DNA of 64,000 nt, taken from Deltaproteobacteria bacterium. GTDB lineage: Bacteria; Desulfobacterota; Syntrophia; Syntrophales; UBA8958. Every line of letters begins with the position of its first letter. Position 1 is the first letter of the stretch. Under the pieces are notes generated by a model. It saw only the letters and a program-made list of their open reading frames with translations. It was not told the origin of the DNA and ran no database searches. Both the position numbers and the translations under genes were made by a program. Location: assembly GCA_029561465.1 (NCBI GenBank), contig JAKQIZ010000078.1, positions 6,638 through 70,637 on the forward strand, given 5' to 3'. Positions 19,942 through 60,334 of the stretch are shown here, in pieces.

Positions 19942-19993
19942 GTATGCCCCCGGCGGGACGGCCGCGATTACGAAACCGATCGGCGCGCGGCCC

Positions 19994-31940: not shown

Positions 31941-31956
31941 TTCCCCCCTGATCGCT

Positions 31957-34581: not shown

Positions 34582-35342
34582 CTCATTTCATAGGGGGTGG
34601 CAGCCGCGGAAAACCCCTGCTGCGCCAGCCAGTATTCCACGCCGGCAAGCTGCCATTCGAAGTCCACGTCACACCCACCCCATTGCTGGAGGGGAAAGAT
34701 CTTCCTCCCCATCCATTTCTGGGGCAGCAGTCCCTCCTCCAGATTATCCAGGCACCGGGGCCGAACGATGGATACCCCCATATCGGCAAACCAGACATCG
34801 CCTTGCGAATCGCGGTCACAGTTCAGAGTCGCCGGATCGCCGAAGGTTTCGAAAGGAACGAAGGGATGCAACAGTCCGTCCGCGCCGATTTTCCTCGCCC
34901 GCAGCGGGCTCCACATATTGTAGCAGGAAACGGTCACCGCGGAATCGTACTCCTCATTTTTCCTGAGGATTTCTATTCCCGCGTCGATGGTCGCCGCCAG
35001 GATCGTCGCCGCGTTGCAAAACAGCAGCACGATCAATTCGATTTCTTTTCCCTCCTTGCCCAAGCTCTCCTTTATGACGCGGTAACCGTGGACGTACGCG
35101 TGTTCCCCCAGGGCGGCCCGGGAGGCAAGTTCGGGAGGGCGGACAATGATCCGGGCGCCGTGTTTTTCCCCGAGCGCCATAATCCGTTCATCATCCGTCG
35201 ATACATAGACCTGGTCCACATTCCGGGCGTATTTCGCCGCCAGGAGGGGATATTCCATCAAGGGTCTGCCCAACACGGGATAAAGGTTCTTGCCGGGAAA
35301 ACCGACACTCCCCTTTCTTCCCAACAAAAGCGCTACGATCAT
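34578..35342 (-). CDS. acylneuraminate-cytidylyltransferase-family (CMP-sugar synthetase-like) protein
   Basis: N-terminal LLLGRKGSVGFPGKNL (GSxxxPxKN-type motif). 254 aa. ATGA overlap at 34578..34581. Confidence 0.8.
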   Translation of the reverse strand: MIVALLLGRKGSVGFPGKNLYPVLGRPLMEYPLLAAKYARNVDQVYVSTDDERIMALGEKHGARIIVRPPELASRAALGEHAYVHGYRVIKESLGKEGKEIELIVLLFCNAATILAATIDAGIEILRKNEEYDSAVTVSCYNMWSPLRARKIGADGLLHPFVPFETFGDPATLNCDRDSQGDVWFADMGVSIVRPRCLDNLEEGLLPQKWMGRKIFPLQQWGGCDVDFEWQLAGVEYWLAQQGFSAAATPYEMR

Positions 35343-35366: not shown

Positions 35367-36887
35367 CTATGTCTTCCATCTTGCCATGCGTTCCCTGATG
35401 CCCGCGGTGACGATGTTCCTTGTCTCGCGGTAGCGCCTGGAAATCCTGCTCAGGAGATAATCCAGCGTCAATGCATACAAAAGAACCACCGAAAGTTTCA
35501 ACAAGAATAAATATGCCGCGGACAAAGCGACGGCGTCCAAGGAATAGACCAGGGCGAGCACCGCCAAGAGGGGCCACAGGTTGCGGATCAATCCGTAATC
35601 CGTCCGGTGGAGCCGCTGCGATATGTACAAGGTGATGAAAAATAGGATCACTTCGGATAATGTCTTGGCCAGGGCGGCGCCATAGACGAAAAAAATCGGG
35701 ATCAGCGTGTAATTAAAGTAAACGTTGAGGAGGGCGGAAAAAAACAGGGTCACGGGAAACCAGATCGTCTGATTCCGGAAGACAAACTTCAATTGAAAAA
35801 TGCCGGTGGCCTCAGAAAGGATAATGCTCAATAAAAAAATCGGCACGATCCGATAGCATTCATGAAAGCGGGCATTCATCAATAACTGCACGACTTCCTT
35901 GCTGAAAAGAGATATGACAAGGTAGAGGAACAGGGAAAACTGCACGAAGATGAGAAAAGCGTCCTTGATGTCGGACTGGATTTCCCGGTCTTGGGCATCG
36001 AGGCGTTTCGATATCTCCGGTTTGATGGCGGTCATCACCGGCCGGGACAAAAATGAATACTGGGTGGCGATATTCACCCCGGCCGTGTAGATGCCCACCG
36101 AATTAAGGGAAATCATATTGTTCAAGTAAACCTTATCAATCCGGTCCTGAACCCAGGAAAGGAAATTCAACGGCACCATGGGGAGGGAATAACGCATCGC
36201 CTCTTTAAAGATCGAAAGCTTATGCCAGGAAAAAGACAGCCACTCCCGAATCAGCCAGAGCCCATAGACCGTTATGGCCACCTGCACCGCCGCCTGGAGG
36301 ACGATGACATCCCACACATCGAAGCCCCAGTAACACAGGCCGACGATCTGCAAGGGCATAAAGAGGACAAACTGCACGATTTCCAGGTAGAAGATCTTCT
36401 TGTTTATCTGCAAGCTCAAGATGTTATCACTGATGAAACCGTAGATTGCCAAAAGCATCGCCATCAGTACCGGGATATACAGGTAAATCCGGTGGGGAAA
36501 GATTATGTCCTTGATAAAGAAATTTACCAACCGATCGATAAACAGGGAAGAAACAACCACGCCCACCGTGGAAAACATCAAGATATAAAAGAGGACCACG
36601 CCCAGACATTCCCGGCATTCCCGCCGGTCGCTTCTTTCATAACGATAGATGATCCGGCTGGAGTAAGAAACGAGTCCCATGCTGAAAATCCCGCTCAGAA
36701 AGGCCTGGACGACGCTGACCATGGCGATGACGCCGAAGTCCTGGGGGGAAAGATAGTAGGTAATGATCGGCAAGGTCAGCAGGGCGGCGACCTTGGTAAA
36801 GATGCGCACCGCGCTCAGCCAGAAGATATTGCCGAGGATGAACTTGTAGCCGTTCAAAGGGATCTTTTGCTCCGGACGGCGTCCCAC
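35367..36887 (-). CDS. wzx: oligosaccharide flippase (Wzx / MOP superfamily)
   Basis: About 12 hydrophobic segments across 506 aa, with locally lower GC. Start is GTG 36887, or TTG 36857 (TTGA overlap with the upstream stop). Confidence 0.8.
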   Translation of the reverse strand: MGRRPEQKIPLNGYKFILGNIFWLSAVRIFTKVAALLTLPIITYYLSPQDFGVIAMVSVVQAFLSGIFSMGLVSYSSRIIYRYERSDRRECRECLGVVLFYILMFSTVGVVVSSLFIDRLVNFFIKDIIFPHRIYLYIPVLMAMLLAIYGFISDNILSLQINKKIFYLEIVQFVLFMPLQIVGLCYWGFDVWDVIVLQAAVQVAITVYGLWLIREWLSFSWHKLSIFKEAMRYSLPMVPLNFLSWVQDRIDKVYLNNMISLNSVGIYTAGVNIATQYSFLSRPVMTAIKPEISKRLDAQDREIQSDIKDAFLIFVQFSLFLYLVISLFSKEVVQLLMNARFHECYRIVPIFLLSIILSEATGIFQLKFVFRNQTIWFPVTLFFSALLNVYFNYTLIPIFFVYGAALAKTLSEVILFFITLYISQRLHRTDYGLIRNLWPLLAVLALVYSLDAVALSAAYLFLLKLSVVLLYALTLDYLLSRISRRYRETRNIVTAGIRERMARWKT

Positions 36888-38701
36888 AGGATGGCGTTGA
36901 TTTTACTGATATCCTTTTCCGGACGGGAGTAGCGGCGGAGGAAGTCCCGATTCTTCGTCATGGGGTTGCCGTTTTGGACATCCGCCTGCAAGGCCGCCAG
37001 CGTCATGGGGAAATCCGCGACGTCGAAAGCGATCCGGATCCTTCGCCGCAGCAGCTCCAGCGCCGCGGCCTCGAGGCGGACCTGGTTTCCGTCCAAAAGG
37101 AGGGCGATGGGCTTGTCGGTCAGCAGACACTCCTGGAGAACGGTGGAGGGATAGTCGAGGATGAAGGCGGCGGCGCCGCCAAGAACCTCCTCCAGGGGCC
37201 TTGTCTCCATCCGGAGACGATCGCCGGCGCCGATATGGGAAGCATAGAGATTTTCCCGGCCGCGGACGGTTTTCAGTATGAATCGGCCTGAACCCGTATC
37301 CCCCACGGCCCGGAGAATCCTTTCCTGATGCCGATATGCCTGAAAAAAGGCGCCGCCGTTGAAGGGATAATGCTGCCAAGTACCGGTCTTGATATTGTCG
37401 AGAACGATATAGATTCCCTGGGCCCGTGTATCGCGCTTTGCGGTTGACAGCCGCTGCTCCACTTCCGCAAGATACGGGGAGCCGACGGGAATGATTCCGG
37501 CCGGACGGCCGTCGAAAAAAGGGCTTGCCGCCACGCCCTCGCCATAGACGAAAAAATAATCGGCAAGTTCCGCATCGAGATTGAACAGGGGCCAATCGAG
37601 ATAACCGGCACCGCCCCCCTCCTGGTAGGTCGCCACGGGCACCCCCAGGGACTTCGCCACGCCCATGATCAAGGCGTCTTTCAGATCCATGCGGCAGGCC
37701 GCCGTGCAGAGGAGAAGAGGCGATTCATCGGCCAGGAGCTTCCTGACCGCCGTCCCCAACCCGGTGATATTTTTCCCCAGGGAGAAGCGGAGGTATCCTT
37801 CCAGGCAGGCGAAGGCAAAACGGCACAGGGAGGCATGGCCGCGAAAAATTCGGTGCCCCGCCAGTTCCTTCTCCGCCGCCCGAAACGCCGCGGCGATGTC
37901 CCGATCATCCCCGTCGCCCCCGACGATGCCCGCCGTCCGCACGCGTCTTGAATGCAGGGATTTCAGGGCCACCAGCCTCGGCAGGAAAAATAGTTTGTAA
38001 AACTCCCGCTCCCCGCGGCAGTAGTCGGCCCAGACCTTGACGTCATACCGGTCATCGAGAAGGATCACTCCGCCCTGCTTGCCCGCCTTGCCCGCCCCCC
38101 GCGGCCAGCTCCGCCAACAGCTCTTCAGCAGCCCCGCCCACTCCCGATAGTCATCCTTCCTGTCCGGCCACGCCTTATTCCTTCCGACCCGGCGGACGGA
38201 AACGCCCTCGTGAACCGGCATAAAGACCTTTTCGGCGAGCGCGGGCACGAGGGGGTGTTCCCCGCCGATAATCCGTCCGAGGGCATATTCAGCGGCGATT
38301 ACCGTCGTACGACCGCCCGCCGCGTGGTTCAGCAACGCCGCGAAAATCAAATAGGAGGTAATGAGGCTGTCGAAAAAAATCTTGACCGGGAAAAAGGCAT
38401 GCCGGAAAAGATCGATGCCGTGGGCGCGGAAAAAGGCAAGGCGCGCCCGCAGTTCATCGTCGATGACGGCACAGATCTCGTTTGCCAAGGCCATGTTTTC
38501 CATCCCGATGGCATTCAGATCCGGCACCTCGACGAGGTCGTCGGGAAACAGACAGCTTATATGGTCTCTTTCCAGGGCCAGCTTTGCCCCCACGGAAAAA
38601 GAGACCACAGTGTCATCGGCTTGGCCGGGCCTCATTCCGGCCATGGGGAGCGCCGGTTCGGGAGCGGCGACGACAATCAGATTTCGCTTCTTGTTAGGCA
38701 T
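36854..38701 (-). CDS. large hypothetical protein (615 aa)
   Basis: Long ORF in operon context starting with ATG. No recognised motifs except a GT-B-like tail (AAFILDYPSTVLQECLLTDKPIALL). Confidence 0.5.
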   Translation of the reverse strand: MPNKKRNLIVVAAPEPALPMAGMRPGQADDTVVSFSVGAKLALERDHISCLFPDDLVEVPDLNAIGMENMALANEICAVIDDELRARLAFFRAHGIDLFRHAFFPVKIFFDSLITSYLIFAALLNHAAGGRTTVIAAEYALGRIIGGEHPLVPALAEKVFMPVHEGVSVRRVGRNKAWPDRKDDYREWAGLLKSCWRSWPRGAGKAGKQGGVILLDDRYDVKVWADYCRGEREFYKLFFLPRLVALKSLHSRRVRTAGIVGGDGDDRDIAAAFRAAEKELAGHRIFRGHASLCRFAFACLEGYLRFSLGKNITGLGTAVRKLLADESPLLLCTAACRMDLKDALIMGVAKSLGVPVATYQEGGGAGYLDWPLFNLDAELADYFFVYGEGVAASPFFDGRPAGIIPVGSPYLAEVEQRLSTAKRDTRAQGIYIVLDNIKTGTWQHYPFNGGAFFQAYRHQERILRAVGDTGSGRFILKTVRGRENLYASHIGAGDRLRMETRPLEEVLGGAAAFILDYPSTVLQECLLTDKPIALLLDGNQVRLEAAALELLRRRIRIAFDVADFPMTLAALQADVQNGNPMTKNRDFLRRYSRPEKDISKINAILWDAVRSKRSL

Positions 38702-40210: not shown

Positions 40211-41227
40211 CTATAGGAAGTTCAAGGCGCATTGTTTACAGATCTTGTTCCGGAAGTATTCGCCCTCCCGGTGCATCCGCCGCAACGCCTTCATTTTCTT
40301 GGCATTCCAGAGTTGATAAACGGACTCTTCCCCGGCATTGCCCATGGCCATCTGCAAGGAATAACCCAGGAGGCAACAGGGGAGGACCCGGCCATCGGTG
40401 AGGACCACGACGCGAAACCACGGCTGGGTGCACCGGAAATCGGGATTCTTGATCCTCTTCTCGCCCGGGGCGGGATTCAGTTCCCCCGCGTCGGGAAAGG
40501 CGCGGTTGTACTCCTGGATGGCGATGGCATCGACGCGCTCCGTCCAAAAGGCGGTAAAGTCATCCATTTCGTGTTCGTTTTCCTTCATCTTCACGAAACT
40601 CACCCGGGTGATGGGGAGTACCTTGCCCAGCTCTTGCTTACGTTTGCAGAAATACAGGATATTCTCCATTACCCGGGAAAAATTGGAACCGATCCGGATC
40701 TTGTCGTAGGTTGCTTCCGTAATCGCGTCGAGAGAGAAGTGTATCCGCGTCAACCCCGAATGGAGCAGCGCCTCCGTCTTCTCCCGATCGAGGAGGGTGG
40801 CGTTGGTGTTGATCATGATATCGAGGATGCCTTTTTGCTTTGCATAGGCGATGTAATCGAGAAGATTGCCGACCAGCAGGGGCTCCCCTTCCTGGTCCAG
40901 GCCGATGGAAGACAAGCCGTACTGAACGCCTTCCTCGATAACCCCCTTGAACAGATTGATATCCATGAGCCGCTGCCGCTGGGGATACCGGTCCTTGTGG
41001 GCATGGGTGCACATGATGCACCGGAGGTTGCACCCGAAGATCGTTTCGAAATCGATATGGATGGGATACTCCGGTTCGACGGCGAAGGCCGCCGCCGCCT
41101 CGAACCGCTCCCGATACCGGCGGAAATCTTCTCCGAGCTCCTCGCTGAGGATATCGTTGACATTGACGCGGTAACTGAACTGTTCCGTTTGTTTGGAGCT
41201 GTCCTGACGTGAGAATTTTTTTTCCAT
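40211..41227 (-). CDS. radical SAM protein with SPASM-type C-terminal domain
   Basis: CNLRCIMC (CX3CX2C). C-terminal CTQPW...LPCC...CKQC. Confidence 0.85.
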   Translation of the reverse strand: MEKKFSRQDSSKQTEQFSYRVNVNDILSEELGEDFRRYRERFEAAAAFAVEPEYPIHIDFETIFGCNLRCIMCTHAHKDRYPQRQRLMDINLFKGVIEEGVQYGLSSIGLDQEGEPLLVGNLLDYIAYAKQKGILDIMINTNATLLDREKTEALLHSGLTRIHFSLDAITEATYDKIRIGSNFSRVMENILYFCKRKQELGKVLPITRVSFVKMKENEHEMDDFTAFWTERVDAIAIQEYNRAFPDAGELNPAPGEKRIKNPDFRCTQPWFRVVVLTDGRVLPCCLLGYSLQMAMGNAGEESVYQLWNAKKMKALRRMHREGEYFRNKICKQCALNFL

Positions 41228-41239
41228 TCCTATAGGTCC

Positions 41240-42052
41240 CTACAAATCCTTTTTTGCATAGACGATCATCATGTTACCGAAAAAGGCGGGCGTTTCCCGA
41301 TCCTGGAAAATACATTTCACCAGCTCGATAATATCGCGGGCCAAAGCGGCATAGGGCGTTTCGAGATAGGGATAATTAATGCTCGTAATGCTGAAACCAG
41401 CCTTCTTCAGCATGGCCCCGATCGTCTCCGGCGAGAAATAATAGAGATGCTCGCCGGGCTTGACCTGATTGAACTTGGTCCGGAAGAGCACCGCGCTGAT
41501 GCTGCCGATATTGGGAAGCTGACTTATCCTCAGGACGCCCTCATCCTTCAGCGCCCGGCGCATGCTGAGGAGATCCTCGTAGGGATTCTGGGAATGTTCC
41601 AGGACCCCCCGCATCTGGACAATATCGAAATATTTTTCCGGTAGTTCGATGTTGCGCACCTGGCCGGTGATGATGTTCAACCCGAATTTCTCCCTCCCGA
41701 TCCGGGCGGCGGCGGCGGAAAATTCCGTTCCCCACTTCTCGAAGGTATCCGGCAGGGTCAGCAGGAACTTGCCCACGGCACAGCCGACGTCGAGAAAGCG
41801 TCCCCGGCGGGCGACATTGGCCAGGATCTCCTCGATCTCGATCTCGTACATCCGCTGCCGCAGCTCATCGCCGGCATAGTGTCCGTCGTCGAAATAGTCT
41901 GCGGAGTAAAAGGCCTGCAACTCCTCGTTGTCCGGACGGGGATTGCAGTATATCAGTCCGCACTTACGGCACTTGACGATATCGATGCCCGCCTTTTTTC
42001 CCCAAAATTCGGTTTCACTGCTTCCGCAGAGATTGCAGTTTACATTTTCCAT
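41240..42052 (-). CDS. class I SAM-dependent methyltransferase with N-terminal Cys4 zinc ribbon
   Basis: CNLCGS...CRKCG then FLDVGCAVGKF. ATG 42052 has a GGGAGA SD. The longer ATG at 42091 abuts its SD and overlaps the upstream gene. Confidence 0.8.
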   Translation of the reverse strand: MENVNCNLCGSSETEFWGKKAGIDIVKCRKCGLIYCNPRPDNEELQAFYSADYFDDGHYAGDELRQRMYEIEIEEILANVARRGRFLDVGCAVGKFLLTLPDTFEKWGTEFSAAAARIGREKFGLNIITGQVRNIELPEKYFDIVQMRGVLEHSQNPYEDLLSMRRALKDEGVLRISQLPNIGSISAVLFRTKFNQVKPGEHLYYFSPETIGAMLKKAGFSITSINYPYLETPYAALARDIIELVKCIFQDRETPAFFGNMMIVYAKKDL

Positions 42053-42074
42053 GTTGTCTCCCTGTTCACAGGCC

Positions 42075-42839
42075 TCACTTGGATCCGACATCCTCCCCCC
42101 GGGCCTGCTCCCAGGTCCGCTTGACCTGGCGGTTCAGCTCCAGCCACTCGGGGTGTTCCTTGAGGAGACCGATGATATCCATGGTGGTAAAGGCGGGATT
42201 CTTGGGGTAGAGATGCTCGTAGATCGCCTTGATCAATTCATAGTCGGCATACTCGTCCAGTTCGAGGTGCCAGTCGGGATAATGGAGCTCCGGCGGGGCA
42301 TAGACGTTATGCATCTTGAAAAGCTCCGGATTCTTGAGGATATAGAGGGTGACATGCTCCCGGAACTTCGCCTCCTTCGCCGCGCGATGCATCCGCTCCA
42401 AAGCGGCGAAAGCGAAAATCTGCACATCGATCCCGGGAGGATAGGACTGTTCAATGAAATTGCTCAGGTAATCGTAATCGGCCTTCAGAAACACGTCGAT
42501 GCAGGCGTCGATGAGCCAGGGGTCCAGGAGGGGGCAATCGCCCGTAACCTCCACGATCACGTCGGTCCGATGTTCCCGGGCGGCATGATAGACCCGGGCC
42601 AGGACGTCCTCCGAAGAGCCGCGAAAGCACTTCACGCCGTAATCGAGGCAGAACGCGGCGATGACGTCGTCCTCGGCGTTCACCGTCGTGGCCATGACGA
42701 TGTCCGTAATCCTCCGCGCCCGCCGCAATCTTTCCATCAGCAGCTCGATGGAGGGTTTCCCCAGGATCTCCATCATAGTTTTACCCGGCAGGCGGGAAGA
42801 ACCCATCCGCGCCTCGATAATGGCATTTACCCTTTTCAT
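42075..42839 (-). CDS. cytidylyltransferase, SpsF/PseF-like (acylneuraminate cytidylyltransferase family)
   Basis: AIIEARMGSSRLPGKTM N-terminal motif. 254 aa. Confidence 0.8.
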   Translation of the reverse strand: MKRVNAIIEARMGSSRLPGKTMMEILGKPSIELLMERLRRARRITDIVMATTVNAEDDVIAAFCLDYGVKCFRGSSEDVLARVYHAAREHRTDVIVEVTGDCPLLDPWLIDACIDVFLKADYDYLSNFIEQSYPPGIDVQIFAFAALERMHRAAKEAKFREHVTLYILKNPELFKMHNVYAPPELHYPDWHLELDEYADYELIKAIYEHLYPKNPAFTTMDIIGLLKEHPEWLELNRQVKRTWEQARGEDVGSK

Positions 42840-42842
42840 GCT

Positions 42843-44144
42843 CTACATCCCTTCCGTCGCCGCGTATTTCAGTAGTTGATCTTTCTCCGCCAGCACCTTC
42901 TCCACCCCCCGGGCGATTTCCTCCATATCGGCAAAGGTCTGGGGCGGCCGGACGATTTCCGTGGAGATCACCATCTTTTCCAGCTCCTCCGCCTGGGGAC
43001 AGATCCCCCGCTCATAGCTCACCTCCCCCCGGTAAAAGGGGCAGGAAAACGGGCAGCCCTTGTCGCCGTAGCCGATCCGCCGCTGGTAGAGGGGCTGGAG
43101 ATAGAGGGGTTTCATATAGCTCACATAAAAGTCCAGGCCTTCGGCGTTCAGGGCCTTGACGAACAGGGGCGCATCGATGGGGATGACCTCCCGGTCTATC
43201 TTCAGGGCATAGCGGTAATAAACATGGGTGGAATCGGGCCGCGCTCCGGGCAACCCCAGGCCGGGGATGCCCCGCAGCCTTTCGTTGAGGTAGGATACCA
43301 GCTCCCGCCGCCTTTGGGTGAGGTCGTCCAGTTTCCGCAATTGTTCCCTGGCGATCGCCGCCTCGATCTCCGTCATGCGGTAATTGCCGCCGATCATGTT
43401 GACCAGGCTCCCCACGGCCATGCCCGCCGCAATCACCGCCTCGCCGTGGTTGCGGATCAGACGGAGCCGCTGGGCCAGATCGTCATCGTCCGTCACGGCG
43501 ATTCCCCCTTCGCCGCATTGAATGACCTTGTTGCAGTTGAGACTGTAAACGCCGATAGCTCCGATCGTCCCGGAGAGCTTGCCGTTGTACAACGCCCCGG
43601 GCGACTGGGCGGCGTCTTCGATGACCCGCAGGCCGTGCTTTTTGGCCAGATCCATGATGGGACCCATCGCCGCCGGGTGGCCGAAGATATGGGTGACGAA
43701 GATCGCCCGGCTCCGGGCGGTGATCCTCTCCTCCAACCCGGCGGGATCGAGATTGTAATGGTCCAATTCCACGTCGGCAAAAACGGGAATGCCGTTGAAG
43801 GCCAGAATCGCCGTCGCCGTGGCGCTCATGGTGAAAGGCGTGATCAACACCTCGTCTCCCGGCCCCACCGCGCAGGCGCCGACAGCGGCAAACAGGGCCG
43901 ACGTGGCGGAGTTGAAGCTCACGGCATACCGGACGCCGAACTTCTCCGCCCACTCTCCTTCCAGGGCCTTTACCTGCTCACCCCCCAGGAAGTATTGATT
44001 GTTCGTCCCCTCGAACTCGGAAAGGATCGCCCTTTCCAAGACGGCCAGGACCGCCTTCTTTTCCTCTTCCCCCGTCGTGGCATGGACGGGATAGCCTTTC
44101 GTCCGCAGCGGTTTACCCCCCAGCAGGGCTAATTGTGCGTGCAC
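42843..44144 (-). CDS. DegT-family aminotransferase, long (~430-aa) subtype
   Basis: LALLGGKP start, VIEDAAQSPGA, NCNKVIQCGEGG (Lys). GTG start at 44144. Confidence 0.85.
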   Translation of the reverse strand: MHAQLALLGGKPLRTKGYPVHATTGEEEKKAVLAVLERAILSEFEGTNNQYFLGGEQVKALEGEWAEKFGVRYAVSFNSATSALFAAVGACAVGPGDEVLITPFTMSATATAILAFNGIPVFADVELDHYNLDPAGLEERITARSRAIFVTHIFGHPAAMGPIMDLAKKHGLRVIEDAAQSPGALYNGKLSGTIGAIGVYSLNCNKVIQCGEGGIAVTDDDDLAQRLRLIRNHGEAVIAAGMAVGSLVNMIGGNYRMTEIEAAIAREQLRKLDDLTQRRRELVSYLNERLRGIPGLGLPGARPDSTHVYYRYALKIDREVIPIDAPLFVKALNAEGLDFYVSYMKPLYLQPLYQRRIGYGDKGCPFSCPFYRGEVSYERGICPQAEELEKMVISTEIVRPPQTFADMEEIARGVEKVLAEKDQLLKYAATEGM

Positions 44145-45127
44145 TTCCCCGGACCTCCCTGTCTTTCTATTTCTTCGATTACCCTTTGAATATCCAGATA
44201 CCTTTGGGGAGATACGACCGGGATGAGTTCGGGCGCGCCGGCCAGACGCACCAGCTGCGCCACGGCTCCGCCCAGGGCATAACCGATGGTGCTCCTGATC
44301 CCCCGCCGGACCCGCCGCAGCTCCCTGGCCCCCGTCTCCGCCCGGTTTTCCCCCGCTTCCCAGACGACGATCTTCAGTCCCTCGTCCAATATCTGTATTC
44401 TCCCCTCCGTACAGACGAAATCCATCTCGAAGAGACGGAATTTGTCAAAATCGCAGCTCTGAATGAGGCAAGGGATATCCCCCGGAAACACCAGATAGAC
44501 ATCGTAGGAATATTCCCTGGCAGCGGGGGAGTAACGCCGGTCGAGGACGGTTATCCGCTCCGGCGCCCCCAGGGTATGAATGAGGTAGCCCAGCAGATGG
44601 GTCCCCATATTCCGGAGTCCCTTGCCGATATAGCAGTTCACCCGCTGGATGGCCCCGTATTCACCCCGCTGCAGGAGGGATCGGACCTGGAGGTGGGACT
44701 TGTCGTACTCCCGATAGAGGTTGATCGTGATCTTCGCGTCGTCCTGTTCCGTCCAGCGGGCGACCGCCTCGATCTCCGCCGTTCCCCGGGTAAAGGGTTT
44801 TTCGCAGAAGATCACGGGAACGGATTTCCTGGCCGCCTGGAGAATCTCCAAATGGGTTTCCGGGTGGGTGCAGACGCTCAGGATGTCCAGGGGGTTTTCC
44901 GCCAGCATTTGCCGGTAGTCGGAATATAATTTCGCCACGCCCCACTGCGCGCCGAACCGCCGCCGCCGCTCCGCGTCGATATCGGCCCCGCAAACCATCT
45001 CCACCGCCGGATGGCGGGCGTAGGACCCGGCATGGGTCAGGCACGGATAAAAGACCTTCGCCCGGGCGTCCTCCTCGTAGAGGGAGGCGATGCGGCCCAG
45101 GCCGACAATCCCCGCCTTGATCTTCAT
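44129..45127 (-). CDS. Gfo/Idh/MocA-family NAD(P) oxidoreductase
   Basis: MKIKAGIVGLGRIA Rossmann motif and FCEKP. 332 aa. Confidence 0.85.
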   Translation of the reverse strand: MKIKAGIVGLGRIASLYEEDARAKVFYPCLTHAGSYARHPAVEMVCGADIDAERRRRFGAQWGVAKLYSDYRQMLAENPLDILSVCTHPETHLEILQAARKSVPVIFCEKPFTRGTAEIEAVARWTEQDDAKITINLYREYDKSHLQVRSLLQRGEYGAIQRVNCYIGKGLRNMGTHLLGYLIHTLGAPERITVLDRRYSPAAREYSYDVYLVFPGDIPCLIQSCDFDKFRLFEMDFVCTEGRIQILDEGLKIVVWEAGENRAETGARELRRVRRGIRSTIGYALGGAVAQLVRLAGAPELIPVVSPQRYLDIQRVIEEIERQGGPGKCTHN

Positions 45128-45398
45128 TTTTCTTCTCTTAGGCTTTTTGAAAACATTATCGATGATTGTGAATTATGTAAGCTTATCCATTCAATAATAA
45201 CGACATCGTAAAAGGTCAAAAAATGTTCCATTTGGGACGGCATCGTAAAAAGATCCGCAGGCGAGGCGCGCGAATCCTGAGGAATGAGGCGTACTTGTGC
45301 GTACGTCGCAGTGACGAGGGATGAAGCGCAACGAAGCATCCGGACTTTTTACGATGCCGTCAATAATACTAAAATGCTTTTTACATTTAGCAACTAAA
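45128..45398 (-). promoter_or_regulatory. AT-rich 271-nt intergenic region splitting the array; probable terminator/promoter/operator zone
   Basis: Largest non-coding gap in the window and visibly AT-rich. Contains three copies of a ~17-nt motif (CG[A/G]CATCGTAAAA[G/A]) at 45201..45217, 45238..45255 and, inverted, 45342..45359. Confidence 0.55.
45236..45361. repeat. long-range inverted repeat (21 bp with one bulge) enclosing an ~83-nt GC-rich core
   Basis: GACGGCATCGTAAAAAG(A)TCCG at 45236..45257 is the reverse complement of CGGACTTTTTACGATGCCGTC at 45341..45361. Confidence 0.85.
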
Positions 45399-47440: not shown

Positions 47441-48238
47441 TTATTGCCGGCCACTGAATCTGTTCCTCAGGAACTCCTGGTTTTGCCGCTCCGCGTCGGT
47501 CATGGTCTTTTCGTCCGTTCCCAGCATGGAAACGATCATCCGCTTGTATTCCACCAGCATCTTCAGCTCCAGGGGATCGGCGGAAAGGATATGATCCGTG
47601 CCGAAATAGGTCTTCGAAAGGGTAATGTGCTTCTCGATGACCGCCGCCCCCCGGGCCACCGCCACCAGGGGCGCCACGATGCCCAAGGTATGATCGGAGT
47701 AACCAACCTGGCACCGGTAACGCTCCCGGAGGTAGTCCATGGTCCGCATGTTGACCCGTTCATCCGGGAGGGGATATTCCGATACACAATGGAGGAGATA
47801 GAGGTCCACTTTTTTTAGCATTGCCACCGCCGCGTCGATCTCCGCCACGGAGGACATCCCGGTGGACAGGAAGACCTTGTCCGCCCGGTCGTTGACCAGT
47901 TTGAGGAGATCATGATCGGTGATATGAAAGGAGGCGATCTTCATGTCCCGCACCCCCAAAGAAAAGAGGTCCGCCGCCTTGGCGGCGTCCCAGGGGGTGC
48001 AGAGAAAGGCGATGCCCCGCTGGCGGGCTATCCCGTAGAGATAGCGCAACTGGTCCATGTCGAGCTGCACCTTCCGGAACCATTCCTTTTCCGGATCGCT
48101 GTCGGCACAGGCCTCGGCGTCATAGTACTGGAACTTCACATAGTCGGCTCCCGCCTCCCGGGAGACATCGATCATCTTCCGGGCGAGATCCATGTCCCCC
48201 AGGTGATTTTCCCCCGCTTCCGCAATGATGATGCACAT
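47441..48238 (-). CDS. NeuB/SpsE-family PEP-dependent sugar synthase homologue lacking the C-terminal SAF domain
   Basis: MCIIIAEAGENHLGDMDLARKMIDVSREAGADYVKFQ and GYSDHTLG motifs. Only 265 aa from ATG 48238. Confidence 0.8.
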   Translation of the reverse strand: MCIIIAEAGENHLGDMDLARKMIDVSREAGADYVKFQYYDAEACADSDPEKEWFRKVQLDMDQLRYLYGIARQRGIAFLCTPWDAAKAADLFSLGVRDMKIASFHITDHDLLKLVNDRADKVFLSTGMSSVAEIDAAVAMLKKVDLYLLHCVSEYPLPDERVNMRTMDYLRERYRCQVGYSDHTLGIVAPLVAVARGAAVIEKHITLSKTYFGTDHILSADPLELKMLVEYKRMIVSMLGTDEKTMTDAERQNQEFLRNRFSGRQ

Positions 48239-48254
48239 TTTCCTATCTACCCCC

Positions 48255-49226
48255 TCAGCCGAAGATTTTTCGCAACCGGACGACGGCCTCGTATTGGGAG
48301 ACATTATGCCCATGATCGCCGTTTTCCGGATCGATTTCCATGATCAGGGTCTCATCGCCCCGCACCTTTCCCAGCAGTTCCGCAAAATCCACATTGCCCC
48401 GACCGATGGGGAGACCCTCCGTGTAGAGATATTTGTCCATTTCGTCAAGGCCATCATCCGGCCGCCAGCGGCAGGCGTCGGAAACGTGAAAATATTCGAT
48501 GAAACCATTAACGAAGTCCGCCGCCGTCAGATACTCCGCCTGGGCAAGGTCTTCGGCGTAGATGTTGCCGAAGCGTACATCGCCGGCCAAATGCCCGTGG
48601 CGTTGCCGCATGTTGAACATGTTGGCCGACAGGACGGCATGGGCCGTATCGAGGAGAAAGCCCACCGATCCCAATCCCAGCTTCCCGACCGCTTCCGCCA
48701 GTATGGCCATATCCCAGGGAAAACAGTGATCCAGGGGGCTTACCGCATATTCCGCCCCCAATCCCGGCGGCAGCCACACGAATCCGTAGTTTTCCAGGAG
48801 GATCCTCACTCCCTTTGGCGCGGCGAGATCGTTCCACCGGGCCACCCGCTCGATGAATCCCCGCCGGGCCTCTTGCTTGGGGATATCGCGGTTAAATCCG
48901 TAACAGCAGTGCATGACCAGTTCGGCGGCGCCGATCCCCTCCGTAAAGGCCAAAACCTTCGTAAGTTTATCCGGATCATCGTCGATGGCGTCAAAGAGGT
49001 AACCTGTCTCGACATCCATGATGGGGAAATGGACGATAAACCGGCAGGCCTCGCCAAGCCGCCGCACCCCGGACATAAAAGCCGCCGCTTCCGGATGGAA
49101 GACATCCCTGGCGCCGAACAGATGGAGTTCGATGACCGGCGGGAGTCCCAGACGCCGAAAGCTCTCCCGGCGGTCCTGCAACTGGGAGGGAAAGACCGCC
49201 GCCTTCATACCGTATTTAAAAGCCAA
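48255..49226 (-). CDS. xylose-isomerase-like TIM-barrel protein (sugar phosphate isomerase/epimerase family)
   Basis: The overall pattern (LLDTAH, LLENYG, HVSD) resembles the AP-endonuclease-2/xylose-isomerase-like TIM family. Start is TTG 49226 or ATG 49208. Confidence 0.7.
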   Translation of the reverse strand: MAFKYGMKAAVFPSQLQDRRESFRRLGLPPVIELHLFGARDVFHPEAAAFMSGVRRLGEACRFIVHFPIMDVETGYLFDAIDDDPDKLTKVLAFTEGIGAAELVMHCCYGFNRDIPKQEARRGFIERVARWNDLAAPKGVRILLENYGFVWLPPGLGAEYAVSPLDHCFPWDMAILAEAVGKLGLGSVGFLLDTAHAVLSANMFNMRQRHGHLAGDVRFGNIYAEDLAQAEYLTAADFVNGFIEYFHVSDACRWRPDDGLDEMDKYLYTEGLPIGRGNVDFAELLGKVRGDETLIMEIDPENGDHGHNVSQYEAVVRLRKIFG

Positions 49227-54905: not shown

Positions 54906-54907
54906 GA

Positions 54908-55954: not shown

Positions 55955-56117
55955 CCCAGACGAATTGATCCGCCTTGACCACAAAGGCGATGCTGCCGCC
56001 CAGTTTTTCCAGGGCCTTGCTTTCGAACACCTTGGTAAAATCGTTGTTCGCCGCCGCGGCGGTTTCGTTGTCTTCCTTGCGGTCTATTTCATAATTTCCC
56101 TTCAGCAGCTTACTCAT
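55932..56117 (-). CDS. small acidic hypothetical protein (61 aa)
   Basis: ATG preceded by AAGGAG with a 6-nt spacer. Overlaps the upstream stop by 8 nt and the downstream start. The composition does not look like a GC-rich shadow ORF. Confidence 0.55.
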   Translation of the reverse strand: MSKLLKGNYEIDRKEDNETAAAANNDFTKVFESKALEKLGGSIAFVVKADQFVWDGDDDVK

Positions 56118-56829
56118 GGATCACTCCTTTGGTGAGCAAAAACTCGGCAAATAAAAAGTCTATCGGTTCGTCGATGTCCACGGACCGTTCCGCCGGCATG
56201 ACACTCACCCCGGTCTTGTCGGCAATAATGACCCCCTCGTCAAAAAGGGTATCCCGCCGGGTGGCATAGACGGCGCCGTTGGGAATGACGAGTTCCGACA
56301 AGGATTGAAAGATCCCCCGCTCCCCCTTCATGGCCCCCGCCAGAAGCAGTTCCGCCCGCTGGTTTTCCCGCCGGCGGAACATCCATTCCGGTCGTTCGGT
56401 AACCGTTTTTGCGGTGAAGGACGATTTCAGTTCCTTGTCCGCCAAAAGAACCTCGATACAGGCGTCGATATCCGCGCCGGTACAAAACGGCGTGGTGGGC
56501 TGCATGGTGACGGCGATATCGACCGGCCGGCCTTCCTGGGACTCGATAAATTCCACGGCATGCCGGCTGACCCATTCCGACGGGCAGTCCTCCGCCAGGT
56601 GGGCCGGCCGGGTAAAGGGGACCTCCGCGCCGTAGCGCCGGGAAATGCTCCGGATCTCGTCGTGATCGGTGGAAACGATGACCCGGCGCAGATGCCGACT
56701 GGCCAGGGCGGCCTTGATCAGGTAGGCGATCAAAGGTTCCTCCCCCAGTAATTTTATGTTTTTCAAGGGGATGCGCTTCGACCCCCCCCGGGCGTGGATG
56801 ATACCGACAATATTTAAATCGTTTTCCAT
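56110..56829 (-). CDS. neuA: CMP-nonulosonic acid synthetase (acylneuraminate cytidylyltransferase, NeuA/LegF-like)
   Basis: VGIIHARGGSKRIPLKNI N-terminal motif. 239 aa. Confidence 0.85.
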   Translation of the reverse strand: MENDLNIVGIIHARGGSKRIPLKNIKLLGEEPLIAYLIKAALASRHLRRVIVSTDHDEIRSISRRYGAEVPFTRPAHLAEDCPSEWVSRHAVEFIESQEGRPVDIAVTMQPTTPFCTGADIDACIEVLLADKELKSSFTAKTVTERPEWMFRRRENQRAELLLAGAMKGERGIFQSLSELVIPNGAVYATRRDTLFDEGVIIADKTGVSVMPAERSVDIDEPIDFLFAEFLLTKGVIHE

Positions 56830-56833
56830 AGCT

Positions 56834-58204
56834 TCACCATTTGTACGGGATCGTAAAGTCCCCTGTTGCCGCCCGTAAGTCCTCCAGATTCATAAAAACC
56901 TTGCGGAAGGCGACGGCCACCTCCTCCATATCCGCGGCCGTATTGGGGCGGTGGATATGATAAAACCAGAGGAAGCGCCGGCGCAGCAACGCTTCGCCCA
57001 CGGGGCACTGCCCGGGAAGGTAGCGGCGCTCCCGGCCGTAGAGATGGCAGGACCAGGGGCAGCCGTGCTTGCCGTAGGCGATCTTCCTCAGGAAAAGGGG
57101 ATTTTCATACATGAGCCGGAGATAACCCGAGCCCACCGGGATGCCTTCCGCCCGCAACGCCGCCAGGACCTTCTGCCGGGGAACGCCCGTGGCCGCTTCG
57201 TCATAAAGCATGGGAAAGACGTGGGGCACCGTCCCCGGCGGGATATCCGGCCTGGTCAGTCCGGGCAGGTCCGGGAGGCGATCCCGGAGCAAGAGGGCGT
57301 TTTCCGTCCGGATTCGGTTGTTCTCCGCAAGCTTGGCGAGTTGCGCCCGCCCCAGGGCCGCCGTCAGTTCCGTCATCCGGAAGTTGAGGCCCACAAGATT
57401 GGTCAGGGATTCGTCATCCCAGGTCTCGTCGGGGATACCTTCCCCGTGATTCCGGATCAACCGGGCCTTTTTGGCCAGCGCCGGATCATTGGTCACGATC
57501 ATCCCGCCCTCACCGGTCATCATGTTTTTCGTCTCCTGAAAGCTGAAGACGCCCATATCGCCCAGGGTGCCCACCCAGCGGCGCCGGTAGGTCGTTCCCG
57601 GCGCCTGGGCGGCGTCTTCCACGACCTTCAGGCCATGCCTCCCGGCTATGGCCAGCAGGGCATCCATATCCGCGGCGTTGCCCAGGAGATGGACCACCAG
57701 GATCGCCTTCGTCCGGGGGGTGATCGCCCGCTCCACCGCCTCGGGGTCCAGACAAAACGTCCGTGCATCCACATCGACAAACACCGGCACGGCATTGAAC
57801 AGCAGGATGCTCATCGCCGTGGCGTTGAAGGACATGCACGTCGTGATCACCTCGTCACCCGGACCGATCCCCGCCGCTCCCAGGGCGGCGGCCAGCCCCG
57901 AGGTGGCGGCGTTGACGGAAATTGCGTAGGTCACGCCGAATCGAGCGGCGAATTCCGCCTCGAAGCGCCGGACCGTCCTCCCCCCGAGAAAACTGAAATA
58001 CTGCCCTTCCAGGTCGGCTGCCGCCGCCGAGGGCATCACGAGGAGCTTGTCGATATCCGGCGTGGGGCTGCCCATGAAACGGGAAAACTCCTCCCTTTTG
58101 AGGACGTTCCGCAGCTCTTCCCATTCCCGGTCGTCGATGACCACGGAACTGCGAAAGGGGGTGCGACGCACCGGCGTTCCCCCTAATAATGCCAATTCAC
58201 TCAT
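56834..58204 (-). CDS. DegT-family aminotransferase, long (~456-aa) subtype
   Basis: LALLGGTPVRR start, VVEDAAQAPG, FSFQETKNMMTGEGG (Lys). Paralogous by eye to 42843..44144. Confidence 0.85.
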   Translation of the reverse strand: MSELALLGGTPVRRTPFRSSVVIDDREWEELRNVLKREEFSRFMGSPTPDIDKLLVMPSAAAADLEGQYFSFLGGRTVRRFEAEFAARFGVTYAISVNAATSGLAAALGAAGIGPGDEVITTCMSFNATAMSILLFNAVPVFVDVDARTFCLDPEAVERAITPRTKAILVVHLLGNAADMDALLAIAGRHGLKVVEDAAQAPGTTYRRRWVGTLGDMGVFSFQETKNMMTGEGGMIVTNDPALAKKARLIRNHGEGIPDETWDDESLTNLVGLNFRMTELTAALGRAQLAKLAENNRIRTENALLLRDRLPDLPGLTRPDIPPGTVPHVFPMLYDEAATGVPRQKVLAALRAEGIPVGSGYLRLMYENPLFLRKIAYGKHGCPWSCHLYGRERRYLPGQCPVGEALLRRRFLWFYHIHRPNTAADMEEVAVAFRKVFMNLEDLRAATGDFTIPYKW

Positions 58205-58266: not shown

Positions 58267-59274
58267 CTATCCTTCGACGGCGACCGGCCGGCCGTGGCGC
58301 CGCGCCGAGGCTGCCAGGGCTGCCGCGAGACGGAGGGCCACCAGACCGTCGGCGCCGGTGCAGTTCACCTTGTCCTTCCGGCCGCCGATGACCATCGCCA
58401 TGTCCGTCACCGCCTCCACCAGTCTATCCCGCTCCGGGGGCGCGGGCAATTCCCGCCGCCGCAGCACCTCGTAGCCGTCATATTGGTCGCTGTGGACAAA
58501 GGCGGCGCCCTCCAGGGACTCCCCGTTGTCCGAGATCCTGACCCGGCCGCGCGCACCGATAAAATCCAGTTCAAAGACGAGGAGCTCCCGCCGGCCCAGG
58601 GCGTTTATCGTGCAAACCGTGCCGTCATCGAGGCGCAACCAGCCGCTGAGATGGGGGTCGTCGCCCCCGCCGGGCAACGCCACCCCGGACACGCACACCG
58701 GCGCCCGACCGGTGATCATGCAGACCACATCCATCAGATGGGTGCCGATATTGAACACCTGCCCGGGGTAAACGGCATGCACAGCCCGGATCGCCCCCAG
58801 TTCTCCCCGACGCACCAGCTCCTGGACGCGGAGGAATCCGGGGTCCCACCGGCGGGTGTGATTGACGGCCAGGACGATCCCGTGCGCCGCGGCGGCGCGG
58901 ACCATTTCCAGCCCCTCCGCCGCGTTTGCCGCCAGGGGTTTCTCACAGAAAACCCCCCGCAGCGGGTAGACCAGCAATTCCTTCAGCAGGGGATAATGGC
59001 TCTCCGTGGGGGTGCAGATGGAAACGATCTCGGGCCGGCATGCGGTCATCAAACGGCCGATATCATCATATACCGGCACGGCCGGGTAATGTTTCCGAAA
59101 GAGATCGGCCTTGTTGCCATCCAGTTCCACAGCGCCCACCAGCTCCGTCTCCGGGCTGCGGGTGTAGGCCGCCGCGTGGCTCCAGGTTCCCCGCCGCCGG
59201 CTCTGGAGGTCGAAGCGGAAACCGATGTTGCCCAAACCGATGATGGCCGCCCGCCGGGGTTGTTCACAGGTCAT
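58267..59274 (-). CDS. Gfo/Idh/MocA-family NAD(P) oxidoreductase
   Basis: AAIIGLGNIG Rossmann motif and FCEKP. Paralogous by eye to 44129..45127. Confidence 0.85.
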   Translation of the reverse strand: MTCEQPRRAAIIGLGNIGFRFDLQSRRRGTWSHAAAYTRSPETELVGAVELDGNKADLFRKHYPAVPVYDDIGRLMTACRPEIVSICTPTESHYPLLKELLVYPLRGVFCEKPLAANAAEGLEMVRAAAAHGIVLAVNHTRRWDPGFLRVQELVRRGELGAIRAVHAVYPGQVFNIGTHLMDVVCMITGRAPVCVSGVALPGGGDDPHLSGWLRLDDGTVCTINALGRRELLVFELDFIGARGRVRISDNGESLEGAAFVHSDQYDGYEVLRRRELPAPPERDRLVEAVTDMAMVIGGRKDKVNCTGADGLVALRLAAALAASARRHGRPVAVEG

Positions 59275-60334
59275 AGTCGCGGATCGCCTTTTTGTACTGA
59301 TCCCACTGGCCGATGTCCAGCCAGCCGGAATGGATGGGATATACCGACACCTTTTCCCCGGCGGCGATCATCTTCCCGATCAGGCCGTCCATATGCACCT
59401 CTTCACCAGCGGGGATATAATCGATCGCCCGGGGCTCCAGGACGTAGATACCGGTATTGATTATCGTATCGTGGCTCGGCTTCTCCAGGATCCTCCGCAG
59501 CCGCCCCTCCCCCAACTCCAGAACGCCGAAGTGTATCTTCACCTCGTGGTAGCAGCCGATCACCGTCATGATCGCCCCCTGGTCACGATGCCAGGCCAGC
59601 ACCTCGGCGACATCCAGGTCCAGGAGGGAATCGCAATTGGCGACGACAAAGGTATCCCCCAGGTGATCCTTGAGGAGGGACAAGCTCCCTGCCGTACCGA
59701 GAAACTCCGGCTCATCGATCCAGTCTACCCCGTAGGGCAGTTCCGCCTCCTGGAGAAAGACCTTTATATACTCCTTTTTGTAGTTGAGGGTCAGGATGAA
59801 ATGCTGAAAGCCCCAGCGGTGGAACTGGTCCATGATCATCTCGACCACGGTCTTCTTGCCGATGGGAATCAACGGTTTGGGGAAAATCCTCGTAAACGGG
59901 TCCATGCGGGTGCCCTTGCCCCCCGCCATAATGACCACGCGGTTCTCATGGCGGGAAACCGGGACGTCGGCGCCTTTCTTCTCCAGGATGTCGGTCCACA
60001 GGATCACGTCCCGGACCGCCCCGTCCTCGTCAAGCACCGGCAATTGCTCGATCTCCCGGGCGATCATCAGTTCTTTCGCCGCGGCGAGCAGGGCGGGCGC
60101 ACCCCGGGTAAGGAAGGCGAATTTGCGGTACATGATCTTCGCCACCGGATCGGAAAAACCGTTGCCGCCGATGATCGCCCGCCGGATATCGCCATCGGTC
60201 ACCGTGCCCACCAGCCGCTGCCGTCCGTCGATGACAAAGAGGATCTTCTGTGCCGATTCGTTGAGTTTCTGCATCGCCTCCTTGATCGTCAGCTCGGGAG
60301 GCACGAGGAGTGATTGCAATTTATTCTGTTCCAT
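59264..60334 (-). CDS. CBS-domain sugar-phosphate nucleotidyltransferase (PtmE-like)
   Basis: Tandem CBS-like N-terminus, then VIMAGGKGTRMDPFTRIFPKPLIPIG (G-x-G-T-R nucleotidyltransferase motif). Confidence 0.85.
   Translation of the reverse strand: MEQNKLQSLLVPPELTIKEAMQKLNESAQKILFVIDGRQRLVGTVTDGDIRRAIIGGNGFSDPVAKIMYRKFAFLTRGAPALLAAAKELMIAREIEQLPVLDEDGAVRDVILWTDILEKKGADVPVSRHENRVVIMAGGKGTRMDPFTRIFPKPLIPIGKKTVVEMIMDQFHRWGFQHFILTLNYKKEYIKVFLQEAELPYGVDWIDEPEFLGTAGSLSLLKDHLGDTFVVANCDSLLDLDVAEVLAWHRDQGAIMTVIGCYHEVKIHFGVLELGEGRLRRILEKPSHDTIINTGIYVLEPRAIDYIPAGEEVHMDGLIGKMIAAGEKVSVYPIHSGWLDIGQWDQYKKAIRDYDL

Follow-up and report, generated by a model that had tools for sequence, protein, structure and literature searches.

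Many microbes have surface glycans, flagella and S-layers capped with nonulosonic acids (NulOs), sugars that influence how phages and immune systems recognise them. To our knowledge, natural NulOs carry at most two backbone nitrogens, on C5 and C7. We analysed a stretch of 64,000 nucleotides from a Deltaproteobacteria bacterium (contig JAKQIZ010000078.1; this whole stretch is called the window below), in which a cassette of three genes, coding for a Gfo/Idh/MocA oxidoreductase (Gfo), a long DegT aminotransferase and a cytidylyltransferase of the CTP_transf_3 family, is present twice among genes for NulO synthesis. We call them cassette 1 (Gfo1, DegT1, CTP1) and cassette 2 (Gfo2, DegT2, CTP2), and their relatives in other genomes type-1 and type-2 triads. 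The closest described layout is the ElaABC one of Acinetobacter baumannii KL49 and Vibrio vulnificus, which is also that of PtmF-LegF-PtmA in Campylobacter and Plesiomonas. In a 2026 study based on crystal structures, docking and knock-outs, it was proposed that ElaA, a Gfo/Idh/MocA protein, oxidises the C8 hydroxyl of Leg5,7Ac2, a legionaminic acid (Leg), linked to cytidine monophosphate (CMP), and that ElaC, a short-chain dehydrogenase/reductase (SDR), re-reduces the ketone to the 8-epimer, ElaB being the CMP-Leg synthetase (PMC13656337). Elsewhere, PtmE, PtmF (the oxidoreductase), LegF and PtmA are given as the canonical order of the Leg cluster, and PtmA is placed in the first pathway step (PMC4481668, with the order in its Table 5). 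The triads bear on these conflicting published roles, early for PtmF and PtmA, late for ElaA and ElaC.

The window repeats much of this layout. In the order PtmE, Gfo2, DegT2, CTP2, a Gfo/Idh/MocA gene stands near that of a putative CMP-Leg synthetase, in a Leg cluster, directly after a PtmE-type nucleotidyltransferase. PDB entry 3EZY, the nearest structure for ElaA (PMC13656337), is also the top PDB match of Gfo1. The differences lie in the third enzyme, which here is an aminotransferase of 433-456 aa dependent on pyridoxal phosphate (PLP) and not an SDR ketoreductase, so that the ketone would be aminated, and in the order, Gfo-DegT-CTP versus Gfo-CTP-SDR. Neither cassette has an SDR, and the only one nearby (32850-33602) belongs to the unit of a third cytidylyltransferase, CTP3. 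Extra amination of a nine-carbon sugar would be chemistry so far undescribed, and ElaABC with a transaminase in place of the reductase may be regarded as its precise known analogue.

For the amination of an ulosonic acid as such, KdnA would be the precedent. Gattis et al. are said to have reported in 2013 that KdnB and KdnA of Shewanella oneidensis, together with KdsB, turn the eight-carbon ulosonic acid Kdo (3-deoxy-D-manno-octulosonic acid) into 8-oxo-Kdo and then into the 8-amino sugar Kdo8N, before CMP activation. KdnA, whose structure we take to be PDB 5k8b, is a sequence relative of both long DegTs (152-176 bits). Common to the two systems, if our reading is right, are the oxidation of an ulosonic acid followed by transamination by a DegT-family enzyme, and the clustering of the genes with that of a cytidylyltransferase. 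However, KdnB is an iron-dependent alcohol dehydrogenase (Fe-ADH) that acts on the primary alcohol of an eight-carbon sugar, whereas the enzyme here is a Gfo/Idh/MocA protein, whose target would presumably be a secondary alcohol in a nine-carbon sugar; neither cassette contains an Fe-ADH, the partner that a KdnB-type system has. A trio resembling KdnA, KdnB and KdsB (a DegT of 398 aa, an Fe-ADH of 385 aa and a CTP_transf_3 protein, 18396-21371 of locus L006) was observed in Candidatus Magnetobacterium bavaricum (LACI01002732.1), a few genes downstream of a type-2 triad in the same glycan island.

Conversion of a secondary alcohol into an amine by a Gfo and then a DegT protein is known from GenD2/GenS2 (with GenN and GenD1) in gentamicin synthesis, and from WbpB/WbpE, GnnA/GnnB and NtdC/NtdA. 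The methyltransferase and B12-radical S-adenosylmethionine (rSAM) enzymes that follow cassette 1 recall GenN and GenD1. Pairs of the GenD2, WbpB, GnnA or NtdC type nevertheless differ from those of the window by their substrates (a pseudo-oligosaccharide, nucleoside diphosphate (NDP)-hexoses or hexose phosphates), by their low identity (16-30%) and by their location outside NulO clusters.

We propose tentatively, and with a confidence just short of even, that each cassette is a NulO tailoring unit, in which a nonulosonic acid would be oxidised and then transaminated, probably at C8. The six open reading frames (ORFs) were all found where the original prediction had placed them, on the minus strand, with the same gene order and orientation in the two cassettes, and in the Pfam families it had claimed. 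Cassette 1 consists of Gfo1 (44129..45127, 332 aa, PF01408 at 55.2 bits, with the motif FCEKP), DegT1 (42843..44144, 433 aa, PF01041 at 294 bits) and the SpsF/KdsB-like CTP1 (42075..42839, 254 aa, PF02348 at 112 bits). Cassette 2 consists of Gfo2, a putative NAD(P)-dependent sugar dehydrogenase (58267..59274, 335 aa, PF01408 at 66.3 bits), DegT2, of the DegT/DnrJ/EryC1 group (56834..58204, 456 aa, PF01041 at 336 bits), and CTP2, which resembles the CMP-nonulosonate synthetases NeuA, PseF and LegF (56110..56829, 239 aa, PF02348 at 82 bits). All six proteins score above the Pfam gathering cut-offs (24 bits for PF01408, 19.8 bits for PF01041), and none reached the cut-off of an NCBIfam equivalog model. 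Little space separates the genes, neighbours overlapping by 11-17 nt or lying 3-62 nt apart: Gfo1 and DegT1 overlap by 16 nt and DegT1 is separated from CTP1 by 3 nt, while the gaps in cassette 2 are of 62 nt (Gfo2-DegT2) and 4 nt (DegT2-CTP2).

Among the blocks said to be common to the two oxidoreductases, FCEKP, GE.GAI and GTHL are indeed in both, but SHA.AY is exact in Gfo2 only (THAGSY in Gfo1) and CTP..H in neither (CTHPETH and CTPTESH). The LALLGG.P start was confirmed for both long DegTs. Families and catalytic motifs are intact: E111-K112-P113 is invariant in the Gfo alignment, K226 and D197 are invariant in the alignment of the DegT456 family, and the lysine of DegT1 aligns with K226 of DegT2, the predicted Schiff-base lysine.

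One argument for a tailoring role comes from the operon of cassette 2, in which all genes are on the minus strand. LegB (beyond the window end, after LegC on the contig; TIGR04180 at 507.8 bits, cut-off 475), the aminotransferase LegC (63134 to past the window end; TIGR04181 at 523.1, cut-off 420), an N-acetyltransferase of the NeuD/PglB type (62547-63212; TIGR03570 at 162.9, cut-off 160.8), a NeuB/LegI-type synthase with a SAF domain, NeuB2 (61492-62697; TIGR03569 at 453.8, cut-off 399.65), and a hydrolysing 2-epimerase of the NeuC/LegG type (60321-61499; TIGR03568 at 445.9, cut-off 235.9) are all present, most of LegC and all of LegB lying just past the window end. They are followed by the PtmE-like gene, with CBS and NTP_transferase domains (59264..60334), which is directly upstream of Gfo2 and overlaps it by 11 nt. 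Nothing is missing from the Leg core when the pair is set aside, so that Gfo2 and DegT2 are surplus to the 5,7-diamino chemistry. The long DegTs do not duplicate LegC or PseC either: DegT1 scores 216 against the PseC model and 185.5 against LegC, DegT2 226 and 194.5, with cut-offs of 423.5 and 420, compared to 523 for the genuine LegC upstream.

Which ketone would a long DegT aminate? The best solved relative of both is Fic25, which aligns over the full length (E 3e-61 to 3e-67), including the C-terminal extension. Fic25 is a 'sugar aminotransferase-like' enzyme of diamino-dihydroxy-heptanoic acid (DADH) biosynthesis in Streptomyces ficellus (PDB 8gyh, 8gyi, 8gyj). It is also the best structural match of the AlphaFold model of DegT2 (pLDDT 84), with 35% identity and a TM score of 0.78-0.85, ahead of RbmB, SerTA, ArnB, GDP-perosamine synthase and BtrR; KdnA was found at Foldseek rank 41. 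Fic25 transaminates the C6 ketone of carrier-linked 2-amino-5,7-dihydroxy-6-oxoheptanoate, an acyclic carboxylic acid in which hydroxylated carbons flank the ketone (PMC11726168). This substrate would be closer to the exocyclic chain of a NulO than to an NDP-hexose. It differs by being held on an amino-group carrier protein in an antibiotic pathway, and there is no carrier gene at this locus. The long DegTs had been predicted to belong to the subtype of scyllo-inosose aminotransferases. This holds in part: of the inosose enzymes (StsC, BtrR, RbmB), RbmB and BtrR are indeed among the top structural matches, but they come below Fic25, and no inositol-pathway gene was seen in the annotated neighbourhoods of the window and related loci.

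A Cys-rich stretch, CP[FW]SC-x12-13-G.CP, was noticed in the C-terminal extension (residues 364-383 of DegT1, 382-401 of DegT2). It is found in 20 of 26 type-1 and 15 of 51 type-2 relatives, in a part of the model where AlphaFold confidence is low. Fic25 lacks the CP[FW]xC motif, which most triad members carry. We considered that it might be a required metal site and rejected this idea, the stretch not being universal; an obligatory site is unlikely because the third Cys is often lost.

The two other proteins of each cassette can be assigned to families by profile matches. For Gfo2, the AlphaFold model (pLDDT 95) has the canonical Gfo fold, with a TM score of 0.8 to family members. CTP1 and CTP2 are established members of the CTP_transf_3 family and putative CMP-NulO synthetases: CTP2 reaches 133 bits against the PseF model TIGR03584 (cut-off 205.7), and CTP1 is below the cut-off of every KdsB model.

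The arrangement is conserved far outside this genome. A scan with the DegT456 alignment, taking one genome per species, gave 80 loci, and about 85 loci from more than ten phyla were collected in all, the neighbouring genes being labelled by a script according to their best BLASTP match to window proteins. Nitrospirota, Planctomycetota, Omnitrophota, Elusimicrobia, Dehalococcoidales and Verrucomicrobia are represented among others, and also Rhodospirillales (including metagenome-assembled genomes, MAGs, of Magnetospirillum), Methanolobus psychrotolerans and Methanoperedens. Counting only same-strand genes at a distance of up to 3 kb, the long DegT is accompanied by both partners, Gfo and CTP_transf_3, in 63 of 87 cases (21 of 26 type-1 and 42 of 61 type-2), and the mirrored arrangement of the cassettes is therefore far beyond chance. 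Type-2 loci are organised around Gfo, DegT2 and CTP2, flanked by LegB, LegC, NeuB, NeuC and PtmE on one side and by a small ORF, a Maf-like gene and a B12-rSAM gene on the other; in type-1 loci, NeuB and CTP1 precede Gfo, DegT1 and a GT-B-like protein of approximately 350 aa, and CTP1 is thus the partner of the type-1 DegT in other genomes as well. CTP2 directly adjoins DegT2 in 35 of 61 type-2 loci, whereas PtmE is within the locus in 25 of these 61 and in 2 of 26 type-1 loci: the pair is more tightly linked to the cytidylyltransferase than to PtmE. In 401 random Pseudomonadota genomes, nine full-length Gfo2-like genes were found, eight of them in such modules and the ninth at a contig edge. 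On plasmids, tblastn with Gfo2 retrieved only unrelated Gfo genes without NulO context, for instance on E. coli pECOED, and tblastn with DegT2 retrieved no match.

Locus L098 holds a complete operon of the pseudaminic acid (Pse) type, which includes a cytidylyltransferase, and after it a second unit made of CTP1, Gfo, long DegT, a 352-aa protein and a GNAT acetyltransferase. A single NeuB is present there for two CTP_transf_3 genes; the second unit fits an amination followed by N-acetylation, with separate activation. Both triad types stand back to back in a Chthoniobacter sp. MAG (L037, JAYWEB010000247.1), in the order CTP1, Gfo, DegT1, unk354 (the GT-B-like protein), Gfo, DegT2, CTP2, NeuB, NeuC, PtmE. 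Separately, about a dozen 'lonely' long-DegT homologues (L030, L044, L052, L056, L067, L068, L074-L076, L082, L084, L086) have neither Gfo nor CTP nor NeuB as a same-strand neighbour within 3 kb. These are mostly DegT2-like at 44-49% identity (56% for L030), and come mainly from Thermoanaerobaculia and Planctomycetota. The CP[FW]xC motif is missing in 11 of 12, the one having it being L076, labelled type 1. The lonely proteins probably have a different function.

The original prediction spoke of a duplicated cassette. In the whole 2.62-Mb genome containing the window, Gfo1 and Gfo2 are mutual nearest paralogues (90 bits, the runner-up reaching 26-28), and the same holds for DegT1 and DegT2 (311 bits, with 136-164 for the next ones). 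Together with the common order and orientation, this is what a recent tandem or segmental duplication in this genome, leaving two redundant copies, would also produce. We give that explanation a practically negligible probability, recent segmental duplication being ruled out by pairwise identities and trees. By pairwise BLASTP, the Gfo proteins are 27% identical over 249 aa (E 4e-29), the DegT proteins 39% over 444 aa (E 8e-92) and the cytidylyltransferases 28% over 141 aa (E 2e-6). This 27-39% between copies contrasts with 54-89% to orthologues in other phyla: more than 120 relatives were found there for DegT1, at 54-89% identity, and more than 120 for DegT2, at 58-81%, nearly all of exactly 456 aa. 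Moreover, CTP1 and CTP2 do not recover each other genome-wide at E 1e-5, the nearest paralogue of CTP1 being a KdsB-like gene and that of CTP2 being CTP3, the third cytidylyltransferase of the window; they belong to different subfamilies.

Trees gave the same answer. When the DegT, Gfo and CTP trees were labelled by DegT type, 2-4 label changes were counted versus 21-25 in shuffles, and the Gfo and DegT trees alone split congruently by cassette type (2-3 changes versus a shuffled mean of 22-25). In the Gfo tree, a branch with SH-aLRT support 90 has type 1 on one of its sides, and type 1 is set apart from the other Gfo proteins of the genome (99). The congruent splits imply that the Gfo and long-DegT pair diverged once, long ago, into two types. 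The whole 36-54 kb block in which cassette 1 lies has a syntenic counterpart in a MAG contig with the label Prolixibacteraceae (L001/L002), and in a related contig (L005) the cassette 2 operon lies directly upstream of the first genes of the cassette 1 block; both cassettes therefore travel together in other lineages. By these comparisons, cassettes 1 and 2 are two anciently diverged versions of one pair, co-inherited with their surrounding blocks. Each version has its own subfamily of cytidylyltransferase as partner, which is SpsF/KdsB-like in type 1 and NeuA/PseF-like in type 2. What stands of the duplication is thus an ancient common origin of the Gfo and DegT genes, and not a recent event in this genome nor a common subfamily for the third gene.

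In the mechanism that we propose, the substrate of Gfo would be the finished nine-carbon sugar, either free or already joined to CMP, one secondary hydroxyl of which would be oxidised to a ketone. The long DegT would then transaminate this ketone with PLP. The adjacent cytidylyltransferase would be the CMP-activating enzyme matched to that sugar, either supplying or accepting the CMP-sugar. The predicted product of cassette 2 is an 8-amino-8-deoxy (5,7,8-triamino) legionaminic-type acid, and that of cassette 1 would carry an analogous extra amine on a second, heavily tailored ulosonic acid. By analogy with ElaA, C8 is the most likely position of oxidation; it is also favoured because, with the keto group at C4, a CMP-sugar would easily undergo elimination. 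The gene identities, their conservation and co-divergence, and a Leg core that needs no such pair are what the sequences show; the substrate, the carbon that receives the amine and the timing with respect to CMP activation are inferred. An extra amino group on two NulO sugars, as the original prediction had it, is the best-supported reading, given the complete Leg core, the ElaABC layout and the ketone amination by Fic25, and it is unproven.

Several observations weigh against it. The comparison with ElaA is one of family, position and logic only, and the structural neighbours of the Gfo2 model, which are generic sugar dehydrogenases at 16-23% identity, including GenD2 (rank 19) and 3EZY, do not discriminate between substrates. 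The PtmF-position protein used for comparison was from an Azospirillum thermophilum plasmid (L125), where PtmE, a 311-aa weak Gfo-family protein with VEKP, a cytidylyltransferase and an SDR follow each other; in this single divergent comparison, BLASTP gave E 0.13 with Gfo2 and no match with Gfo1. Profile comparison (hhalign) with the same protein gave a probability of 33%, with the EKP and His motifs aligned. Campylobacter PtmF and PtmA were reportedly assigned by Schoenhofen et al. in 2009 to the first segment of the pathway, the supply of GDP-N-acetylglucosamine (GDP-GlcNAc). In the cassette 2 operon, no further acyltransferase was found for a third amine. Finally, unk354 is common in type-1 modules, and were this protein to hydrolyse NDP-sugars, such a module would form an early pathway complete in itself.

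Alternatively, Gfo and DegT may act before NeuB condensation, on a hexose phosphate or an NDP-hexose, with no third amine being made. The pair could prepare the hexosamine precursor of the PtmE (GDP-sugar) route, as PtmF and PtmA reportedly do, or introduce the 4-amino group with no need for a 4,6-dehydratase, which would lead to a 5,7-diamino NulO with its 9-hydroxyl intact. We regard this as rather unlikely. It would agree with the overlap between Gfo2 and the PtmE-like gene and with the position of Gfo2 after PtmE in 25 of 61 type-2 loci, but no PtmE is nearby in the other 36, nor in 24 of 26 type-1 loci. By gene content, a Sulfitobacter Leg cluster (L126) has PtmE directly followed by the cytidylyltransferase, with neither Gfo nor SDR, which suggests that PtmE does not require the oxidoreductase and that the latter is an optional addition for tailoring. 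The 4-amino group is already provided for by LegB and LegC in the operon of the window. In favour of an early step, several type-1 loci lack a clear LegB orthologue. NDP-sugars and sugar phosphates are familiar substrates of Gfo and DegT pairs, with WbpE and NtdA among the PDB matches and GDP-perosamine synthase among the top ones of DegT2; however, the best full-length relatives (Fic25, RbmB, BtrR) use substrates without nucleotide. The faint Epimerase_2 matches of the type-1 GT-B-like protein are what would make it a candidate NDP-sugar hydrolase. Against the early reading stands the linkage of the pair, which is tightest with the cytidylyltransferase, each pair type keeping its own CTP subfamily.

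A different proposal, which we hold to be improbable, is that the pair makes or aminates a molecule other than the NulO backbone, such as an N-acyl side chain, an aminocyclitol (scyllo-inosamine) or another amino sugar of the glycan, with CTP1 activating that molecule. The inositol 2-dehydrogenase model gives the best score for both Gfo proteins, albeit one far under the cut-off, and the inosose aminotransferases RbmB and BtrR stand high in the list of structural matches of DegT2; yet neither an inositol-phosphate synthase nor any other inositol gene was seen in any locus. CTP_transf_3 genes outnumber NeuB genes, three to two in the window and two to one in L098, and CTP1 resembles KdsB/SpsF and the N-terminal domain of spiro-SPASM proteins rather than NeuA. 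Still, the pair is almost always found among NeuB, NeuC and CTP genes, and CTP2 is the sole cytidylyltransferase of type-2 clusters and must therefore serve the NulO.

If backbone amination by the cassettes is right, the triamino NulOs would be an undescribed class of sialic-acid-like sugar, made by two anciently diverged enzyme sets. A reductase-to-transaminase swap in the proposed C8-epimerase cassette would give a simple route to the third amine, which in turn would alter the charge of the sugar and its capacity for acylation. We found no report of triamino nonulosonic acids in the literature. That triads generally make CMP-activated triamino NulOs, for instance 5,7,8-triamino-3,5,7,8,9-pentadeoxy-non-2-ulosonic acids, in more than ten bacterial phyla and in methanogenic archaea, is a wider claim, and we hold it as doubtful. 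CMP-linked ulosonic acids with m/z 679.1983, 693.2139 and 707.2296, to which no structure was assigned, have been described in Magnetospirillum gryphiswaldense (2026 preprint). We fitted these sugars to C15H25N3O8, C16H27N3O8 and C17H29N3O8, hence to three nitrogens per sugar. The first formula is that of a triacetamido derivative of legionaminic acid, and is isobaric with an acetyl/acetimidoyl/O-acetyl form. Type-1 triads are present in Magnetospirillum MAGs (L079, L085). In a homology search, no match was named M. gryphiswaldense, and the gene occurs in only 18 of 83 species genomes of its family. The three-nitrogen CMP-ulosonic acids of this species could belong to the triamino class. The triad is widespread in uncultured anaerobes and is also present in at least one cultured methanogen, Methanolobus psychrotolerans YSF-03, which has a type-1 triad (L060). 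It could serve as a genetic marker for three-nitrogen ulosonic acids in mass-spectrometry surveys, and as a defined three-protein assay for enzymology.

As for the rest of the operons, the listed ORF of NeuB2 (401 aa) begins about 50 codons before the family match and overlaps the NeuD-type ORF 62547-63212; the true start is probably near 62545. Another ORF, 62716-63297, was considered as the acetyltransferase and discarded as a wrong-frame artefact with a Pro/Arg/Gly-rich product, the correct one being 62547-63212. Downstream of CTP2, a short ORF of about 61 aa, a short MptE/Maf-like protein and a B12-rSAM enzyme (53412-56117) were observed. This trio follows the type-2 triad in many phyla (also in L005, L006 and L008-L016), and in L008 it comes directly after DegT2, the cytidylyltransferase being located elsewhere.

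Cassette 1 belongs to a run made of Gfo1, DegT1, CTP1, a methyltransferase, an rSAM-SPASM protein, a B12-rSAM enzyme, a 615-aa protein and a Wzx flippase. The run lies downstream of a second NeuB-type synthase, devoid of SAF domain (47441..48313, minus strand, PF03102 at 226 bits), and the whole block is the one syntenic in L001/L002. Upstream of Gfo1, a non-coding gap of 271 nt (45128-45398), reduced to 38 nt in L001, is the only large gap of the array; a consensus scan of it gave no convincing promoter or terminator on the coding (minus) strand. No flagellin gene was found in the whole genome, and the sugars would therefore go to another surface structure. CTP1 and the rSAM-SPASM protein two genes downstream (40211-42839, minus strand, with the methyltransferase between them) look like a split spiro-SPASM fusion, matching respectively the N-terminal half (25.7 bits) and the C-terminal half (81.2 bits) of model TIGR04321.

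The CTP3 unit (31014-35342, minus strand) comprises CTP3 (34578-35342), an rSAM-SPASM protein (33592-34581), the SDR (32850-33602), a methyltransferase (31957-32853) and a D-2-hydroxyacid dehydrogenase (31014-31940). The pairing of CTP3 with an SDR, without a Gfo partner, is reminiscent of ElaB/ElaC, and is also seen in L001. The 615-aa protein of the cassette 1 run (36854-38701) has a counterpart in L001/L002 that is assigned to the LIC12162 family. In L004 (12092-14737), an 881-aa protein fuses CTP_transf_3 and LIC12162-family domains, which are separate genes in the window; from this fusion, one may suspect that large orphan proteins encoded in the window cooperate directly with a cytidylyltransferase.

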